From IMG/VR virus record IMGVR_UViG_3300045988_001496: a stretch of 5,702 nucleotides of DNA; one strand, 5' to 3'. A program made the position numbers and the translations under genes. The notes under the pieces are model-generated. The model saw only the letters and a list, made by a program, of their open reading frames with translations, did no database searches and was not told where the DNA came from. The stretch comes from a virus. Position 1 is the first letter of the stretch. Each line of letters starts with the position of its first letter. Shown here piece after piece: positions 736-5,702 of this stretch.

Positions 736-1629
736 ATGGCATTTTCACTTTTAGGAACACTAGGAACAATTGGAAATATCGCAGGAACAGTTGGAACAGT
801 AGCAAACGCAATAGGTACACTAGGAAATGCATTTGGTGCGTGGGGACAAGTAGGCCAAAGCCAAAGCCAAGGCGGAAGCACACAGCAAGGCGGCGGAAGC
901 AGTCAGAGCATGAGCAAATCCGGAACAAATGACGAACAAGTAATGCAATACCTGAAAGGCGCATACCAATATCAAAACGCAGAAGGGCAAAGGCAAAGTC
1001 AATTCAATCAAAGGTCAATGCTAGAACAGATGGGTTACAACACATTGGGAGCGATCGCGCAAGGCATATACAACCACATCGAGAACAGCGCAGCAATGAG
1101 CTTTAACTCAACGGAAGCAATGAAAAACAGAGAATGGCAAGAACACATGTCTAACACAGCCTATCAAAGAGCAGTTGCGGACATGAAAGAAGCTGGACTT
1201 AATCCAATATTGGCATTCCAGAACGGCGGCGCAAGCACGCCAGGTGGTAGCGCAGGAACAATTTCAGGTGCAAGCATGGGTGCGCCATCGTCAAGTGCGC
1301 TAGGAGTAAGCAGAGCAAGTGGCTTTGTACCCAACTCATACTCAAGTGAAAGTTGGTCACAAAGTGATTGGTACAACGCCGCGCAAAGCTGGAACCAGAT
1401 GCTTAGCAGTACAGGAATGACACCGTTAGGATTGCAGGAAACACTATCCAACATCGGCAAAAACACAGGAAACGCAATCGATAAAGCAATCGGAGCAGGC
1501 AGAAAAACAGGCGAAAAATTAAGAGGAAACATGAACAAAGCCATGGACAACGTAAGAAACGGACACGGAATCGACAACATCACAGGCAATAGAAATAGAG
1601 CCGGTGGTGGTGCAGGAAGGAGCAAATAA
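736..1629 (+). CDS. VP2: VP2 minor capsid / DNA pilot protein (phiX174 H analog)
   Basis: 297-aa ORF immediately after VP1. It contains [24 protein letters not shown] (about nt 1147-1221), which I recognise as the conserved gokushovirus VP2 core. It has a hydrophobic Gly-rich N-terminus and Q/S/G low-complexity segments. An in-frame TAA at 730-732 leaves ATG 736 as the only possible start. Confidence 0.85.
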
Positions 1630-1632
1630 AAA

Positions 1633-2652
1633 ATGAGCTGCTATAAACCGTTAATCCGGATATACAGCCCAGAAAACAGAGAAATTAGCGGGCAGGTGTA
1701 TTCACTTGCCCGCTTTTCTGAAAAAGTGGGCAAAAAATTAAGATATGAAGATTTGTTGTATGAACCAAAGGTTATGCTAATTCCTTGTGGGCAATGCATA
1801 GGATGCAGAATTCAACAAAGAGAAGACTGGACAACAAGAATTGAACTAGAGGCGAGACAATGGCCAAAAGAGCAGGTATGGTTTATCACGCTAACATATG
1901 ATGATGAACACGTGCCGGGAATGATTCTTAAAACGGGCGAAATCATGAGAAAAGTACAATATGTATGGAAACCGGGGGAAAAATCACCGGAAAGTGTACA
2001 AACACTACTATACGCAGACGTACAAAAGTTCTTAAAAAGGGTCAGAAGAGCTTACAAATCAAGATTAAGATTCTTCTGTGCAGGAGAATACGGAGAACAA
2101 ACAGCAAGACCACATTACCACATGATACTATACGGATGGAAGCCAACAGACCTGAAACAACTGTACAAAATTCACCACAACGGGTACTATACAAGTGAAT
2201 GGCTAGAAAAACTGTGGGAAAACGGTCAAATCCAAATTGCACAAGCAGTACCAGAAACATATAGGTATGTTGCAGGATACGTAACAAAAAAGATGTACGA
2301 AATTGACGGCAAGAAAGCAAATGTTTACTATGAATTAGGACAGCAAAAGCCATTCGCGTGCATGTCGCTTAAACCGGGGCTGGGAGATGCCTACTATCAA
2401 GAGCACAAAGAAGAAATCTGGAAACAAGGCTACATTCAATGCACTAATGGAAAACAGGCGCAAATACCGCGATACTATGAAAAGATGATGGAAAAAGAAA
2501 ACCCTGAAAGGCTTTGGAGAATCAAACAGAACAGACAAAGAAAGGCAATCGAGCAAAAAAGGCTACAGCTAGAAGACAAAGACTACAAAACACAGTTAGA
2601 AACAAAGGAGCGTGTTATTAAAAAACAAACGAGAAAGCGTGGAATTCTATAA
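1633..2652 (+). CDS. VP4: VP4 replication initiation protein (HUH rolling-circle endonuclease, phiX174 A homolog)
   Basis: 339 aa. AAGGAG (1617-1622) lies 10 nt upstream of the ATG. Motifs: a CGQCIGCR cysteine cluster (aa 52-59), motif 1 WFITLTYDD (aa 83-91), the HUH motif PHYHMILYG (H161/H163, nt 2113-2121), and the two-tyrosine motif YVAGYVTKK (Y212 and Y216, nt 2266-2280). The last compares with YVAKYVNK in phiX174 protein A. Confidence 0.95.
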   Translation: MSCYKPLIRIYSPENREISGQVYSLARFSEKVGKKLRYEDLLYEPKVMLIPCGQCIGCRIQQREDWTTRIELEARQWPKEQVWFITLTYDDEHVPGMILKTGEIMRKVQYVWKPGEKSPESVQTLLYADVQKFLKRVRRAYKSRLRFFCAGEYGEQTARPHYHMILYGWKPTDLKQLYKIHHNGYYTSEWLEKLWENGQIQIAQAVPETYRYVAGYVTKKMYEIDGKKANVYYELGQQKPFACMSLKPGLGDAYYQEHKEEIWKQGYIQCTNGKQAQIPRYYEKMMEKENPERLWRIKQNRQRKAIEQKRLQLEDKDYKTQLETKERVIKKQTRKRGIL

Positions 2653-2664
2653 TTGGTGTCACCT

Positions 2665-2696
2665 AGTCCAGTACCTATCAAGTAGGGTACTGGACT
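2665..2696. other. Stem-loop 13 nt downstream of the Rep stop (11-bp perfect stem, or 13 bp with one bulge)
   Basis: agtccagtacc (2665-2675) pairs with ggtactggact (2686-2696), leaving loop tatcaagtag. Alternatively ta/ta extends the stem with G2687 bulged, leaving loop TCAAG (2678-2682). The following tatt is a poor T tract, so it is not a clean terminator. It is a candidate ori or terminator element. Confidence 0.6.
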
Positions 2697-2700
2697 TATT

Positions 2701-2746
2701 CGCGCGCACACGCGCACGCGTAGACGCGCGCACACGCGCACGCGTA
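2701..2746. repeat. Tandem direct repeat: 2 x 22 nt cgcgcgcacacgcgcacgcgta separated by ga
   Basis: Copies at 2701-2722 and 2725-2746 are identical. Each is a perfect alternating pyrimidine-purine run of 11 YR steps and is strongly GC-rich in an A-rich genome. It contains GCGCGC and ACGCGT palindromes. Confidence 0.9.
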
Positions 2747-2786
2747 TTTATAATATTAACTTGTTGTAGCCGTAGTAGTAGAGTAC

Positions 2787-2949
2787 GTGGAAAAGTTGAA
2801 AACAGATAATTTTAAACGTTAGAACGTTAGAAAACAATAAAAACAAACGTTGAAAGATTTGTTGAAAAAATGTTGAAACGTTGAATCACTCTGTTATGCT
2901 AAAGTTTAACAATGTTAAAATGTTGAAAAGTATGTGGAAACTGTTGAAA
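2787..2949 (+). repeat. Array of same-orientation GTTGAA(A) motifs (iteron-like)
   Basis: Exact GTTGAA starts at 2795, 2849, 2861, 2872, 2880, 2922 and 2943. One-mismatch variants are GTGGAAA at 2787 and 2934, GTTAGAA at 2818 and 2826, and GTTAAAA at 2914. Four copies carry the palindrome AACGTT (2815, 2823, 2846, 2877). The motifs fall in all three frames, and the upstream ones lie outside any ORF. Confidence 0.8.
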
Positions 2950-3162
2950 AGCGCCTGCCGCGGGCAACTGTGCAAAAAGGCAAAATTGCCTTCGGCAACC
3001 TTGCCAGTTTGCACAGTAAAAATTACAAATTATTACAAAGAAACAAAGCCATTGAAAAAAAACTTGACAAATGATATAAAGGAACCAGAAAGAAAGCTCA
3101 TGAATGATGATTATGCAACATTCAAAGGCTTATGGAAATACGCAAAGATAAAAGAGAATTGA
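2896..3162 (+). CDS. Doubtful small basic ORF overlapping the repeat array and the long hairpin
   Basis: The track ORF 2881..3162 starts at TTG, and the first ATG is at 2896. It is lysine-rich. Its MLK/LLK repeats are simply GTTGAAA copies read in frame. No Shine-Dalgarno sequence is present. It ends 5 nt before the alternative peptidase start at 3168. The DNA-level repeat explanation is more parsimonious. Confidence 0.2.
   Translation: MLKFNNVKMLKSMWKLLKSACRGQLCKKAKLPSATLPVCTVKITNYYKETKPLKKNLTNDIKEPERKLMNDDYATFKGLWKYAKIKEN
2967..3017. other. 51-nt compound hairpin (about 20 bp in three helical segments)
   Basis: 2967-2976 pairs with 3008-3017 (actgtgcaaa/tttgcacagt, 10 bp), 2979-2983 with 3001-3005 (ggcaa/ttgcc), and 2986-2990 with 2994-2998 (ttgcc/ggcaa), with loop TTC. 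An alternative fold has two small hairpins on the 10-bp outer stem. No T run follows on either strand, so it is not a terminator. Confidence 0.75.
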
Positions 3163-3557
3163 CAAAAATGATTAAAAGCTATATCATGGACACAGACGCA
3201 AACAAAAATGTAGGCAAACACTTCAAAGTAAAAGAATTTGCATGCAAAGATGGTTCACAGGTGGTATTCATCGACAGTAATCTAGTATCAATTCTGGACA
3301 TTCTCAGAAACCAAGTTGGAAAGCCAGTGCACATAAACAGTGGATACAGGACGCCAACAAGGAATAAAGCGGTAGGCGGTGCAAAATACTCGTACCATAT
3401 GCGGGGAATGGCCGCAGACATTCGGGTTGATGGCATGACAGCAAAAGAAATTGCCAACAAACTGAAAAAAATCATCCCATCTGGCTGTGGCATCATCGTA
3501 TACAATACATGGGTACACATCGACACACGCACCAAAGCATACAGAAAGGAGGTATAA
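3132..3557 (+). CDS. Zinc metallopeptidase of the LAS / Peptidase_M15 type (peptidoglycan peptidase, putative lysin)
   Basis: 141 aa with KEFACKDG, SGYRTPTRN (aa 70-78), GG (82-83) and S87-Y-H89-x6-D96 (nt 3396-3419), plus W-V-H129-I-D131 (nt 3516-3524). H-x6-D together with H-x-D is the Zn-ligand and catalytic layout of M15/LAS enzymes. There is no signal peptide or TM segment. The start is uncertain: ATG 3132 has AAAGG only 3 nt upstream, and the alternatives are ATG 3168 and 3186. Confidence 0.85.
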   Translation: MEIRKDKRELTKMIKSYIMDTDANKNVGKHFKVKEFACKDGSQVVFIDSNLVSILDILRNQVGKPVHINSGYRTPTRNKAVGGAKYSYHMRGMAADIRVDGMTAKEIANKLKKIIPSGCGIIVYNTWVHIDTRTKAYRKEV

Positions 3558-3561
3558 ACAA

Positions 3562-3687
3562 ATGGCTCTTATCAGTATCAAAGATGTCAAGGAAGCAATC
3601 AAAATTATGATGAACATTCTTGAAAAACTGGACGAGATTTATCATGCCCTGCACGACCAGACGAACCAGACGAACGAAAAGGAGTAA
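3562..3687 (+). CDS. Hypothetical 41-aa protein (MALISIKDVKEAIKIMMNILEKLDEIYHALHDQTNQTNEKE)
   Basis: ATG 3562 lies 9 nt after AAGGAGG (3546-3552) and 5 nt after the peptidase stop. The track's upstream Met at 3487 has no RBS and overlaps the peptidase. The product is predicted helical and amphipathic, with no family I recognise. Confidence 0.5.
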   Translation: MALISIKDVKEAIKIMMNILEKLDEIYHALHDQTNQTNEKE

Positions 3688-3693
3688 ACAAAA

Positions 3694-3921
3694 ATGATTG
3701 CAAAATCATGGAACATCAGAGACCAGACCGAGAAGGACTTAGCTGAACTGCTTGAAAAGAAATACAAAGAAATCGAGAACGATTATAAGCTCCTGCGAAA
3801 AATTAGCGAGATGGAAACCGCAAAAAAGATGGTAGATGAAATATGGCGATGCAAAAGCTTTGCTAAAGCCATCGAGCTAGAGCTTATCAGAAGAGGGTAC
3901 AATAATGGGACGACATCGTAA
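3694..3921 (+). CDS. Hypothetical 75-aa helical, charged protein
   Basis: ATG 3694 lies 9 nt after AAAGGAG (3678-3684) and 7 nt after the preceding stop. It has no TM segment and no motif I recognise. Confidence 0.6.
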   Translation: MIAKSWNIRDQTEKDLAELLEKKYKEIENDYKLLRKISEMETAKKMVDEIWRCKSFAKAIELELIRRGYNNGTTS

Positions 3922-4027
3922 AGTAATGCGCGGCGCAAAAGACAAGCACATGTTCAACGTAACCGCACGAAAAACGAAAAGTATCAACCTGAGTCAGAAG
4001 CCAATGCGCGGCGGAATTCGACTCTAA
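3905..4027 (+). CDS. VP8: VP8-like small basic DNA-binding/packaging protein (phiX174 J analog)
   Basis: Found by manual translation; it is absent from the track because it is short. Sequence: MGRHRKVMRGAKDKHMFNVTARKTKSINLSQKPMRGGIRL, 40 aa with 12 Arg/Lys. Its C-terminal MRGGIRL matches the MRGGIR(F/L) end I recall for gokushovirus ORF8 proteins. It overlaps the previous ORF by 17 nt. An internal ATG at 3926 is an alternative start. Confidence 0.7.
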   Translation: MGRHRKVMRGAKDKHMFNVTARKTKSINLSQKPMRGGIRL

Positions 4028-4042
4028 AAGAAAGGAAAAAAT

Positions 4043-4282
4043 ATGCTTCACACTTACTATGGTATCTACGACAACGTAGCAAAGTGCTACGCATGGGTAG
4101 GCGAAAGCAAAAGCAACAACACGTTTGCACGAATGTGCAACACAATGCAGAAAGATGAAAATACGTTTATCGGGCAAACCCCGGCCGATTACGTAGGCTA
4201 TAAGCTGGCAGAGTTTGAAGATGAAAGCGGTGCTTTTCAGAACTGCAAAGAAAAGGCATGGGAGGGCAAACCGAATGAATAA
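4043..4282 (+). CDS. VP5: VP5-like non-structural protein (putative phiX174 C analog)
   Basis: 79 aa, with AAAGG upstream of the ATG. The pattern Y-G-I-Y-D-N-V-A-K-C-Y...F-A-R-M...P-A-D-Y-V-G-Y-K-L-A-E-F-E-D-E-S-G-A-F resembles the remembered VP5 layout (V-F-D...A-x-R-x-F...P-x-D-Y-x-L-x-x-x-G-x-F-D-x-x-x-G). Its position just upstream of VP3 fits. The functional call is from memory only. Confidence 0.6.
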   Translation: MLHTYYGIYDNVAKCYAWVGESKSNNTFARMCNTMQKDENTFIGQTPADYVGYKLAEFEDESGAFQNCKEKAWEGKPNE

Positions 4283-4685
4283 GAGGTATGAAGAGGGGCG
4301 GAAGCCCCTCTTTTCTGCATCAGGAGAAACACAGCGTAAACAATACGTTTGGGCGAAAGACAAAGAAGGAAAAGAGTATCTGCAGGAAACAGAAAGCATT
4401 GACATCCAAGCAGAAATTGAAAGCTATGCGGATGAATGCGACATTAAAAACATTGTAAGAAAAGCAAGTTTTGACCCGCAGTTTATGCAGAGCCTTTCAC
4501 AGGGAGCATTTGACGACACAGAAACAGATATCACAGACTGGCCGCAGAACATTCACGAGTATCATAGAATGATTGCAACAGCGCAAGCAAACGCGATTGC
4601 ACTACAGGAAATGCAGAAAGAAACACCAGAAGAAATACCAGAAGAAATACCAGAAGAAGGAGAAATGAAGAATGGACAGGAATAA
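4275..4685 (+). CDS. VP3: VP3 internal scaffolding protein
   Basis: ATG 4275 lies 8 nt after GGAGGG (4261-4266) and overlaps the VP5 stop in ATGAATAA. YADECDIKNIVRKA resembles the conserved E-C-D-I-N-x-I core of gokushovirus scaffold proteins. It has an acidic C-terminal tail and sits directly upstream of VP1, overlapping it by 14 nt. The track's earlier Met at 4215 lacks an RBS. Confidence 0.8.
   Translation: MNKRYEEGRKPLFSASGETQRKQYVWAKDKEGKEYLQETESIDIQAEIESYADECDIKNIVRKASFDPQFMQSLSQGAFDDTETDITDWPQNIHEYHRMIATAQANAIALQEMQKETPEEIPEEIPEEGEMKNGQE
4292..4316 (+). promoter_or_regulatory. Terminator-like hairpin inside the 5' end of VP3 (8-bp GC stem, GGAA loop, T run)
   Basis: agaggggc (4292-4299), ggaa (4300-4303) and gcccctct (4304-4311) form the hairpin, followed by tttct. 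It lies 10 nt after the VP5 stop and shares its architecture with the hairpin at 706-725. Confidence 0.5.
4625..4660 (+). repeat. 12-nt tandem repeat x3 (accagaagaaat) encoding PEEI-PEEI-PEEG at the VP3 C-terminus
   Basis: Copies at 4625-4636 and 4637-4648 are identical. The third (4649-4660) differs only in its last two bases (gg), which creates the AAGGAG RBS of VP1. Confidence 0.9.
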
Positions 4686-5702
4686 TGAACGGCATTTTAA
4701 CCAAATTCCGAAAATGAAAGCAAGCCGAACGCGATTCAATCGAGATCAGACGATTTTGACAACGTTCGACGCGGGCAAACTCATCCCATTTTACGTAGAC
4801 GAAGTACTACCAGGCGACACATTCGACGTGGATACAACGGCAATTATCCGCATGACAACGCCAAAATACCCAGTAATGGACGATAGTTTTATTGACTTCT
4901 ACTATTTCTTCTGCCCAGACCGCATTTTGTGGAACAGTTTCAAGAACTTTATGGGCGAAGTAGAGGAAACGCCGTGGATGCCTTCAAAAACGTATGCTGT
5001 ACCGCAAATCAAAATCAACGGAACGAATGAAAAACCGGCACCGGACGAAAGAAGCATTCTGGACTATATGGGAGTGCCTACAAAGGTGAAAAAACCGTTC
5101 AGCATCAACGCACTGCCTATCAGAGCATACGTCAAAATTTGGAATGAATTTTTCAGAGATGAAAATGTAGACAACGCCGCAGTACTAAAGAGTGATGATG
5201 CAGACGTGACATACACAATGAGCACTGGCAAAGAAGACACCATGGAAAAAGAACTACAGGAAGCTGTAACAGGTGGTAATCTTTTACCAGTAAACAAATT
5301 CCACGACTATTTCACATCCTGCATGCCATATGCACAACGTGGGCCAGAAGTGACAATAGGACTAGCAGGAGCGGCGGGAGTATATGCATACAAAGACGAA
5401 GAACTTAAAAATAAAACAGAAACAACAATAAACAGCTTTGCAAGTCAAACAGACTTTAGCGGAACAGGAAATCAAAAACTTTATGACATGTTCTTTTGGA
5501 ATGGAACGCCGGCACAAATGTATGTAGGAGACGGAACAAAAAAAGAGAAGTACTATCTGGGGGCGGACCTATCGAAAACTGAGGCCGCAACAATTAACCA
5601 ACTTCGGCAGGCCATAAGCGTACAACAGTACTACGAGGCGCTAGCCAGAGGCGGCTCACGGTACAGAGAACAAGTACAGGCACTTTGGGATGTCATCATA
5701 TC
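4672..5702 (+). CDS. VP1: Major capsid protein VP1 (phiX174 F homolog), N-terminal part; continues at position 3 of the window
   Basis: The frame is open from the TGA at 4666-4668 to the window end by my manual translation. ATG 4672 lies 9 nt after AAGGAG (4657-4662). The N-terminus MDRNNERHFNQIPKMKASRTRFNRDQTILTTFDAGKLIPFYVDEVLPGDTF matches the conserved microvirus capsid N-terminal signature, as do later KFHDYFTSCMPYAQRG and ARGGSRY. The joined product is 556 aa. Confidence 0.95.
   Translation, partial: MDRNNERHFNQIPKMKASRTRFNRDQTILTTFDAGKLIPFYVDEVLPGDTFDVDTTAIIRMTTPKYPVMDDSFIDFYYFFCPDRILWNSFKNFMGEVEETPWMPSKTYAVPQIKINGTNEKPAPDERSILDYMGVPTKVKKPFSINALPIRAYVKIWNEFFRDENVDNAAVLKSDDADVTYTMSTGKEDTMEKELQEAVTGGNLLPVNKFHDYFTSCMPYAQRGPEVTIGLAGAAGVYAYKDEELKNKTETTINSFASQTDFSGTGNQKLYDMFFWNGTPAQMYVGDGTKKEKYYLGADLSKTEAATINQLRQAISVQQYYEALARGGSRYREQVQALWDVII
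5648..5702. repeat. Terminal overlap, copy 2 (identical to 1-55)
   Basis: Same 55-mer as 1-55. It lies inside the capsid coding sequence, which argues for linearisation of a circle rather than a biological terminal repeat. Confidence 0.95.

Follow-up and report, generated by a model that had tools for sequence, protein, structure and literature searches.

The 5,702-nt stretch of viral DNA analysed here (the window) is a complete, circular gokushovirus genome (family Microviridae) that, on the evidence of profile matches, conserved catalytic residues and a predicted fold, encodes an intact zinc peptidase of the M15/LAS class with a LAS fold. Hydropathy scanning of the same genome reveals no recognisable holin, no SAR or signal sequence and no E-like membrane peptide. 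What the gene is, where it came from and what it presumably does were already published in 2012, and the window represents one more well-documented genome of the lineage. The gene itself is not a discovery here; its deployment without a holin is a genuine question, and one that is generic to many microviruses. Gokushoviruses are among the most abundant ssDNA phages of the gut and carry no gene of the phiX174 E type. Their mode of lysis is a real gap, and a lineage that keeps an endolysin-type enzyme without a holin offers a reasonable entry point to this question. The reading preferred here, to which we assign about an even chance, is that a lysis enzyme was captured without its holin and reaches the wall through membrane damage caused by a core viral function, acting as a finisher of lysis in a thick-walled host.

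Genome organisation and the peptidase locus

The window starts and ends with the same 55-nt direct repeat, giving a circular genome of 5,647 nt, and all of its recognisable genes are carried on the + strand. Gokushovirus-type genomes are circular, ~4.5-6 kb long and recognised by five core genes that share a strand, and Pfam and PHROG searches identified all five: the major capsid protein VP1 (Phage_F; 4672 across the junction to 695), the VP2 pilot protein (736..1629), the VP4 replication initiator (Rep; 1633..2652), VP5 (4043..4282) and the VP3 scaffold (Chlamy_scaf; 4215..4685). A J/VP8-like basic ORF lies on the same strand at 3905..4027. Direct reading of the sequence shows that the genome uses strong ribosome-binding sites of the AGGAGG type. 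Samples from humans, pigs and monkeys supplied the closest GenBank records, which are gut Gokushovirinae or entries named 'Microviridae sp.'. The top match, MZ821031, aligns over 86% of the window with a DNA identity of 88% and harbours a peptidase 93% identical to that of the window, in a region left unannotated in the record.

The peptidase gene is separated from Rep by a gap of ~480 nt (2653..3131) and sits at the downstream edge of this interval, which is an insertion hot spot. The interval is a variable, apparently non-coding accessory region containing two hairpins, a GC-rich alternating direct repeat and GTTGAA repeats. Its sole ORF, orf93, was found in 6 of 80 related peptidase-bearing IMG/VR genomes, a set retrieved with the peptidase itself as the query, and in KT264799, a relative devoid of the peptidase, other small ORFs occupy the equivalent position. 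Downstream of the peptidase are two further small ORFs on the + strand (3562..3687 and 3694..3921). The first of these, orf41, encodes an acidic 41-aa protein (pI 5.2) with a heptad-repeat helix and without a Pfam or PHROG match. Its AGGAGG ribosome-binding site is embedded in the last codons of the peptidase gene and it directly follows the peptidase in all 80 related loci, with a median identity of 80%. A role as a peptidase-specific partner, such as a chaperone or regulator, was considered for orf41 and ruled out, as the gene is also present in the peptidase-less KT264799; orf41 is therefore a gene of the lineage rather than part of a peptidase cassette.

An ORF for 141 aa that opens with an ATG at 3132 and ends at 3557 (+), as described in an earlier note on this DNA, appears in the ORF listing. 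However, the real start is probably the ATG at 3168 (M13), 36 nt further downstream, which yields a coding sequence of 129 aa (3168..3557, +). This start is the likelier one because most of the best 120 homologue clusters are 129-130 aa long, with a first residue equivalent to M13, and no extension upstream of it shows conservation: those of the few longer versions are basic, non-hydrophobic and mutually unrelated. Residues are numbered below for the 129-aa protein, the 141-aa numbers being higher by 12 (e.g. H89 equals H77). Two candidate elements around the upstream start were rejected. A targeting signal encoded by 3132-3167 is ruled out, since this extension is neither conserved nor hydrophobic, and a promoter-like site at 3159-3187 (11/12 matches) lies inside the gene, with a site count not above that of shuffled sequence.

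Family, fold and origin of the peptidase

The protein matches the Pfam family Peptidase_M15_3 (PF08291; LAS, MEROPS M15A-type) with E=1.6e-24 and a score of 86.6 bits (cut-off 23.2), the alignment spanning all 108 positions of the profile. It also matches, more weakly, the related DUF882/M15_2. It also matches PHROG 894, 'endolysin' (E=2.3e-43), so that the M15/LAS membership proposed from motifs in the earlier note is upheld by both profile collections. The motifs themselves lie where that note had placed them, with SGYR at 70, GG at 82, S87-x-H89-x6-D96 and H129-x-D131 in 141-aa numbering. The SGYR motif (3339..3350, +) contributes an arginine (R61; R73 in the longer numbering) that is invariant in 41 microviral and two Faecalibacterium phage sequences. 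It is equivalent to R138 of PDB entry 1LBU (the Streptomyces albus zinc DD-peptidase) and R47 of LysPM1, which bind the substrate carboxylate (PMC13461873).

The S-x-H-x-x-G-x-A-x-D block (3390..3419, +) contains the predicted zinc ligands H77 and D84 (H89 and D96), and the W-x-H-x-D block (3510..3524, +) is made up of W115, H117 and D119. Within the latter, H117 (H129) is the candidate third zinc ligand and D119 (D131) a candidate general base. Both are invariant across all nine aligned sequences, including two Faecalibacterium phage endolysins, and the tryptophan is invariant in the 41 microviral sequences and replaced by phenylalanine in FP_Taranis. The full set R61, S75, H77, D84, Y112, H117 and D119 is invariant in the 41 microviral sequences and the two tailed-phage endolysins, which bears out the expected conservation of the three putative metal ligands among homologues. 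In LysPM1 and in the endolysin of Burkholderia phage ST79, these same residues are the ones given roles in catalysis and in the binding of zinc and substrate, and the WxH or (W/F)xH and SxHxxGxAxD motifs are described for M15A enzymes (PMC13461873, PMC5025407).

An AlphaFold2 model of the protein is of medium confidence (pLDDT 76.6, pTM 0.73), with the N-terminal 30 residues at ~50 and a shallow underlying alignment of sequences at least 81% identical. When this model was compared with the PDB by Foldseek, 1LBU ranked first (prob 1.00, E=1.7e-4, rmsd 2.4 A). Later matches comprised hedgehog N-domains, LysECD7, VanY, ChiX and LysB4, all of which have the LAS fold, with E-values of about 0.02-0.06 for VanY and VanXYc. 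The structural comparison suggested in the earlier note thus returns LAS folds, with 1LBU the best among them. The same entry is matched at the sequence level (E=4e-5), with the SxHxxGxAxD block aligned. Zinc-dependent cleavage of a peptide bond in peptidoglycan is a prediction for the window protein by analogy with LysPM1 and ST79: both degrade peptidoglycan in vitro and Zn2+ dependence has been demonstrated for LysPM1 (PMC13461873, PMC5025407).

Pairwise comparison with 40 orthologues gave a median dN/dS of 0.10, indicative of a gene kept under purifying selection. In the 80 related loci, which were found with the peptidase as the query and all contain it, identity to the window falls to 39% for VP1 and stays at or above 69% for the peptidase. 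The wider family is large. A total of 1,237 protein clusters match the peptidase, the best 120 at 79-93% identity and most on contigs of up to ~6 kb, and 759 records of a phage collection also match, well over 100 of them microviruses, many with the annotation 'peptidase'. Among the GenBank relatives, MG945753 and KX513877 carry the annotations 'similar to peptidase' and 'peptidase M15'.

This distribution agrees with the published record. Roux et al. 2012 (PMC3394797) found genes for M15_3 peptidases in 11 Microviridae associated with humans, among them five Gokushovirinae, and showed that they had been acquired horizontally, with four gokushoviral copies grouping with genes of Faecalibacterium and Anaerofustis. 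Holins were noted beside the bacterial homologues and an endolysin role was proposed. Among more than 13,000 microvirus genomes, Kirchberger et al. 2022 (PMC9239249) recognised peptidases as one of just two accessory gene classes; such genes keep their position in several microvirus families and are occasionally swapped between families. Later surveys treat such peptidases as the standard accessory lysis gene of microviruses, and M15 peptidases are also present in cultured microviruses that infect Ruegeria or the Roseobacter RCA group. The caution in the earlier note that the gene may not be new was therefore well placed, as it had been described by Roux et al. 2012 (PMC3394797). Its statement that core Microviridae genomes have no muralytic enzyme proves too strong, given that peptidase and amidase genes are conserved accessory genes in several families (PMC9239249). 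No paper was found in the literature that tests a microviral M15 peptidase or discusses how it crosses the membrane.

Outside the microviruses, the closest homologues (40-52% identity) reside in genomes of Clostridia and in tailed phages of Faecalibacterium. A scan of one genome per bacterial species recovered 193 relatives, of which the best 80, at 38-52% identity, belong almost entirely to Clostridia, including Oscillospiraceae, Acutalibacteraceae, Faecalibacterium, Dysosmobacter, Oscillibacter, Lachnospiraceae and Lacrimispora. The scan found no integrated prophage copy of the microvirus lineage, 52% being the best identity. A small same-strand TM ORF lies within 1.5 kb of the bacterial homologue in 49 of the 65 loci with enough flanking sequence, a mechanical count that includes some false positives. 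In some bacterial homologues, the M15_3 domain forms part of a very long ORF (588, 726 or 1,956 aa), as in tail-associated lysins. Of the Faecalibacterium phages, FP_oengus has its endolysin gene followed by genes for a TM/coiled-coil protein and then a holin, and in FP_Taranis a 'hemolysin' gene precedes the endolysin. The simplest history suggested by these comparisons is that the gene was captured, without the holin, from a lysis cassette carried by a tailed phage that shared the microvirus's Clostridia host, an Oscillospiraceae- or Faecalibacterium-like bacterium. The peptidase thereby also provides a clue to the host, pointing to Clostridia (Oscillospirales). This putative assignment draws on the 38-52% identity of a single transferable gene and on the strong Shine-Dalgarno sites, whose AGGAGG type fits a Firmicutes host. 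Should the host prove to be a monoderm Clostridium-class bacterium, the virus would clearly exemplify infection of walled Gram-positive bacteria by gokushoviruses.

Membrane-like segments of the coding strand

Membrane segments were sought in every stop-free stretch of the three + frames, irrespective of start codons, using the mean Kyte-Doolittle hydropathy (KD) over 17 residues, with a lenient threshold (KD>=1.0 and at most one charge) alongside the usual value of 1.6. As a positive control, the scan recovers OrfN of phiMH2K, an annotated E/K-like ORF in a genome of 19% T, and phiX174 E scores 2.8. Even at the lenient threshold, just three segments emerge from the three + frames of the window: the VP2 N-terminus, a 28-codon stretch at 4877 and a core strand of the peptidase. 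The last of these is the hydropathy maximum of the enzyme (KD 1.21 at residues 103-119, or 115-131 in 141-aa numbering) and corresponds to the beta-strand bearing the candidate third zinc ligand, H129 in the longer numbering, in keeping with the earlier description of a protein with neither signal peptide nor TM helix. The N-terminus is hydrophilic from either start codon, unlike that of a SAR or signal-peptide endolysin. The window thus encodes a muralytic enzyme that lacks an export signal of its own, as holin-endolysin systems do, and its + frames contain no small membrane protein that would serve as the holin and no small or overprinted TM peptide resembling phiX174 E.

The VP2 N-terminus (736..858, +) is Gly/Ala-rich, weakly hydrophobic (KD 1.26) and conserved in relatives. 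It is the sole membrane-like segment of any gene on the coding strand, and the claim that no other + strand ORF is hydrophobic now extends to all three + frames. It is a candidate membrane-active element. However, comparable VP2 N-termini occur in phiMH2K, Chp2 and KT264799, gokushoviruses without the peptidase, and this segment is not tied to the peptidase because it is equally present in such viruses and only weakly hydrophobic.

A survey of related microviruses for small membrane ORFs, which had been suggested earlier, makes the lack of a membrane partner a clade-wide property. At a KD threshold of 1.6, 70 of the 80 related genomes lack any TM-like segment on the + strand, and in the other 10 most matches fall in the VP2 N-terminus or in open stretches that have no start codon. 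Small TM ORFs are found in 20 of 42 peptidase-less relatives versus 6 of 74 peptidase carriers. A scheme in which peptidase and mini-TM ORF are alternative solutions to lysis was considered on the strength of this contrast and not adopted, as the contrast is confounded by clade and the 27-aa ORF involved is likelier a cis element. This hydrophobic 27-aa ORF recurs in peptidase-less relatives, and its DNA is nearly identical between viruses whose proteins are 43-50% identical. The stretch also contains a DnaA-box-like TGTGGATAA and GTTGAA repeats. It is probably a cis-acting element, because its DNA is nearly identical across viruses with divergent proteins. Separately, the position of the peptidase is taken in KT264799 by an ORF of 24 aa that has a single TM segment and a strong ribosome-binding site and is found in three genomes only.

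Hydrophobic ORFs of 118 and 109 aa run antisense to the peptidase gene, and an antisense holin was therefore examined and rejected, as the frames are not conserved. Across 81 orthologous genes, the two antisense frames are open for at least 100 codons in 4-5% of cases, compared with 5-12% after codon shuffling. Each related genome has ~33 TM-like segments on the minus strand. Such spurious hydrophobic ORFs arise because the coding strand is poor in T (18% in the window).

Routes to the cell wall and relation to known systems

Late in infection, the enzyme would cut peptide stems or cross-links of mature peptidoglycan, having reached the wall through membrane damage inflicted by something other than a dedicated holin. 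The source of this damage would most likely be the core lysis function of gokushoviruses, for which the Gly-rich N-terminus of VP2 is one candidate. The gokushovirus EC6098 lyses E. coli with a complement of six core genes (PMC7062461). Since gokushoviruses that have the core genes alone can lyse, a core-encoded lysis activity must exist (PMC7062461), and for the same reason the core genes are the most likely source of membrane damage. The peptidase may then speed up or complete lysis where the host wall is thick and not be a self-sufficient lysis system.

The earlier note had proposed leaky membrane damage by VP2, a host export route, an entry role or virion association as ways of deploying the enzyme. 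Its list left out a route without any export, in which cytoplasmic wall precursors are hydrolysed in the manner of VanX. In this scenario, the peptidase is an enzymatic 'amurin' that stays in the cytoplasm and hydrolyses D-Ala-D-Ala or the stem peptides of UDP-MurNAc-pentapeptide or lipid II. Transpeptidation would be starved and the growing cell would lyse, which is the effect of phiX174 E achieved by catalysis, with no need of a holin. Such a mechanism removes the export paradox posed by a clade in which TM and signal elements are absent although strong purifying selection maintains the gene. The best match among solved structures, moreover, is a D-Ala-D-Ala carboxypeptidase, whose substrate motif is also present on cytoplasmic precursors. 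The repeated acquisition of peptidases by microviruses, several times and never with holins (PMC3394797, PMC9239249), would also be explained because a cytoplasmic target needs no export. Overexpressed cytoplasmic VanX does lyse E. coli by blocking the incorporation of D-Ala-D-Ala, as related in a report citing Sohya et al. 2014 (PMC11514776). However, lysis driven by VanX is described there as slow and partial, with 30% release of GFP in 24 h (PMC11514776). The nearest homologues of the window peptidase are, in addition, endolysins in holin cassettes, and the characterised M15_3 enzymes act on mature peptidoglycan; these were made in the cytoplasm of E. coli, and the accessible parts of the reports mention no autolysis. 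On balance this alternative is considered unlikely. A doubtful prospect of similar weight is that the lineage will exemplify enzyme-based lysis without a dedicated membrane protein, either as the first catalytic 'amurin' or through a core protein, e.g. VP2, that doubles as the membrane-breaching factor.

Release could instead be assisted by the host, through a pore of host or resident-prophage origin (CidA/LrgA-type proteins or prophage holins) or by non-classical secretion. This would account for the lack of any phage-encoded membrane protein, and the genomes of the candidate hosts commonly contain M15_3 genes next to TM ORFs, which are likely to be lysis cassettes of prophages. However, the timing of lysis would then hang on the genotype of the host, and we regard such assistance as quite improbable. 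Least probable of all, and very much so, is an entry function, in which a peptidase attached to the virion, packaged inside it or freed along with it opens the monoderm wall locally for the VP2 conduit: the thick walls of the putative Clostridia hosts, the occurrence of the domain in the very long bacterial ORFs and the strongly cationic nature of the peptidase (pI 9.8, charge +11) would suit this function, but the enzyme is a free-standing 129-aa ORF unfused to VP1 or VP2, its close homologues in tailed phages lie in lysis cassettes and bear endolysin rather than structural annotations, and we know of no solved gokushovirus capsid with such a peptidase component.

The preferred reading, of a captured lysis enzyme that depends on core-encoded membrane damage, can be set against several known systems. 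The problem of lysis by a genome of ~5 kb is shared with phiX174 E and OrfN of phiMH2K. These are overprinted small TM proteins rather than enzymes, and neither has an equivalent in the + frames of the window. VanX belongs to the same LAS zinc peptidase fold class, has no export signal, like the window peptidase, and lyses cells from inside. It is, however, a dipeptidase with a closed pocket, placed in a different M15 subfamily, M15D, and the likeness drawn here runs through its relatives VanY and VanXYc rather than VanX itself. Among solved structures, 1LBU is the best match in both sequence and fold, and its zinc-binding block aligns with that of the window peptidase; in contrast to the latter, it is a secreted bacterial carboxypeptidase of 213 aa with an extra N-terminal domain.

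LysPM1 of Proteus phage Homer and the M15A endolysin of Burkholderia phage ST79 each consist of one Peptidase_M15_3 domain and share the H-x6-D...(W/F)-x-H triad with the window peptidase. They differ in serving phages of Gram-negative hosts with holin/spanin systems, and they are distant in sequence from the window protein, the comparison being one of published descriptions. Closer relatives are the endolysins gp82 of FP_oengus and gp75 of FP_Taranis, which are 36-40% identical to the window peptidase and have all catalytic residues in common with it. FP_oengus gp82 consists of a single M15_3 domain of 138 aa, close in size to the window peptidase, whereas FP_Taranis gp75 follows the 'hemolysin' gene and is fused to PG_binding_1, features that the window peptidase lacks. 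Both phages are tailed dsDNA viruses and the cassette of FP_oengus provides a TM protein and a holin, partners without which the microvirus carries its enzyme. Closest of all are the M15_3 peptidases of gut Gokushovirinae and Alpavirinae (PMC3394797), which share with the window peptidase the Pfam family, the virus group, the habitat, the affinity to Faecalibacterium and Clostridiales and the proposed role, and from which it differs in nothing of substance.

Small genes around the peptidase

Immediately downstream of the peptidase gene lies orf41 (3562..3687, + strand), which encodes an acidic protein of 41 aa (pI 5.2) and whose AGGAGG ribosome-binding site is located within the stop region of the peptidase gene. 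The product displays a clean heptad a/d pattern, composed of I6, V9, I13, M16, L20, L23, Y27 and L30, and has no match in Pfam or PHROG. It is present, at ~80% identity, in all 80 of the related peptidase-bearing genomes from IMG/VR. A counterpart is also found at 4237..4380 of KT264799 (KT264799.1), a gokushovirus lacking the peptidase, and orf41 is therefore a conserved gene of the lineage.

At the site where the window has the peptidase, KT264799 possesses a hairpin resembling a terminator and, after it, an ORF of 24 aa, MVDVIQSIAIMLLSIAVIINAKRR (together 3916..4046). This ORF, which encodes a candidate small membrane or lysis peptide, is preceded by a strong ribosome-binding site, AAAGGAG, consists of one TM helix and a basic tail, and is also found in L180 and L181. 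Further downstream in the window, a basic 40-aa ORF (3905..4027, + strand) with the C-terminus ...KPMRGGIRL overlaps the end of orf75; relatives have a matching VP8/J-like DNA-binding protein (4319..4468 in KT264799, ending ...KNMRGGTRL). An ORF cut-off of 60 aa would overlook the 40-aa ORF.

The Rep-peptidase gap and a conserved stretch 3' of VP4

The Rep-peptidase gap (2653..3131) contains four features. Two are hairpins, a perfect one with an 11-bp stem (2665-2696) and an imperfect one of 24 nt (2967-3017); between them lie a GC-rich direct repeat of alternating purines and pyrimidines, CGCGCGCACACGCGCACGCGTA (2701-2746), and several GTTGAAA(A/C)G repeats (2845-2951). The sole ORF of the gap, orf93, is found in six of the 80 relatives and is thus not conserved.

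Some 100-170 nt past the VP4 stop, a stretch of DNA (L185, 5206..5349; L219, 4942..5085; L220, 1469..1612) is near-identical across gokushoviruses whose VP1 and VP4 are just 43-50% identical; the homologous upstream portion lies at ~2750..2800 in the window. The stretch includes AACTTGTTGTAG..GTAGTAGTAG, GTTGAA repeats and the DnaA-box-like TGTGGATAA, the reverse complement of a DnaA box. Although it can be read as a hydrophobic 27-aa ORF, MLNTMNFYPWNDIFWIILMLILLWITC, it is more likely to be a cis-acting element for replication or packaging than a gene.

Membrane-like segments and bacterial homologues

Across the window and its 80 relatives, the coding strand is ~37% A and 18% T, an extreme strand asymmetry, and as a result the complementary strand is rich in TM-like open segments, with a mean of 33 per genome. 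Caution is therefore due for hydrophobic minus-strand ORFs in such phages, including reported complementary-strand genes.

In some bacterial homologues, on the Clostridia MAG contigs L111, L120 and L122 (match 6001..6375), the M15_3 domain resides within very long ORFs of 1,956, 588 and 726 aa; instead of free endolysins, these may be multidomain wall hydrolases, tail-associated or of another kind.

The only membrane-like element of the window's coding strand is the VP2 N-terminus (736..858, +). This Gly/Ala-rich start of small, hydrophobic residues, which looks like a glycine zipper, is common to VP2 of the window phage, phiMH2K, Chp2 and KT264799 (from 1684 in L170 and 1804 in L171).
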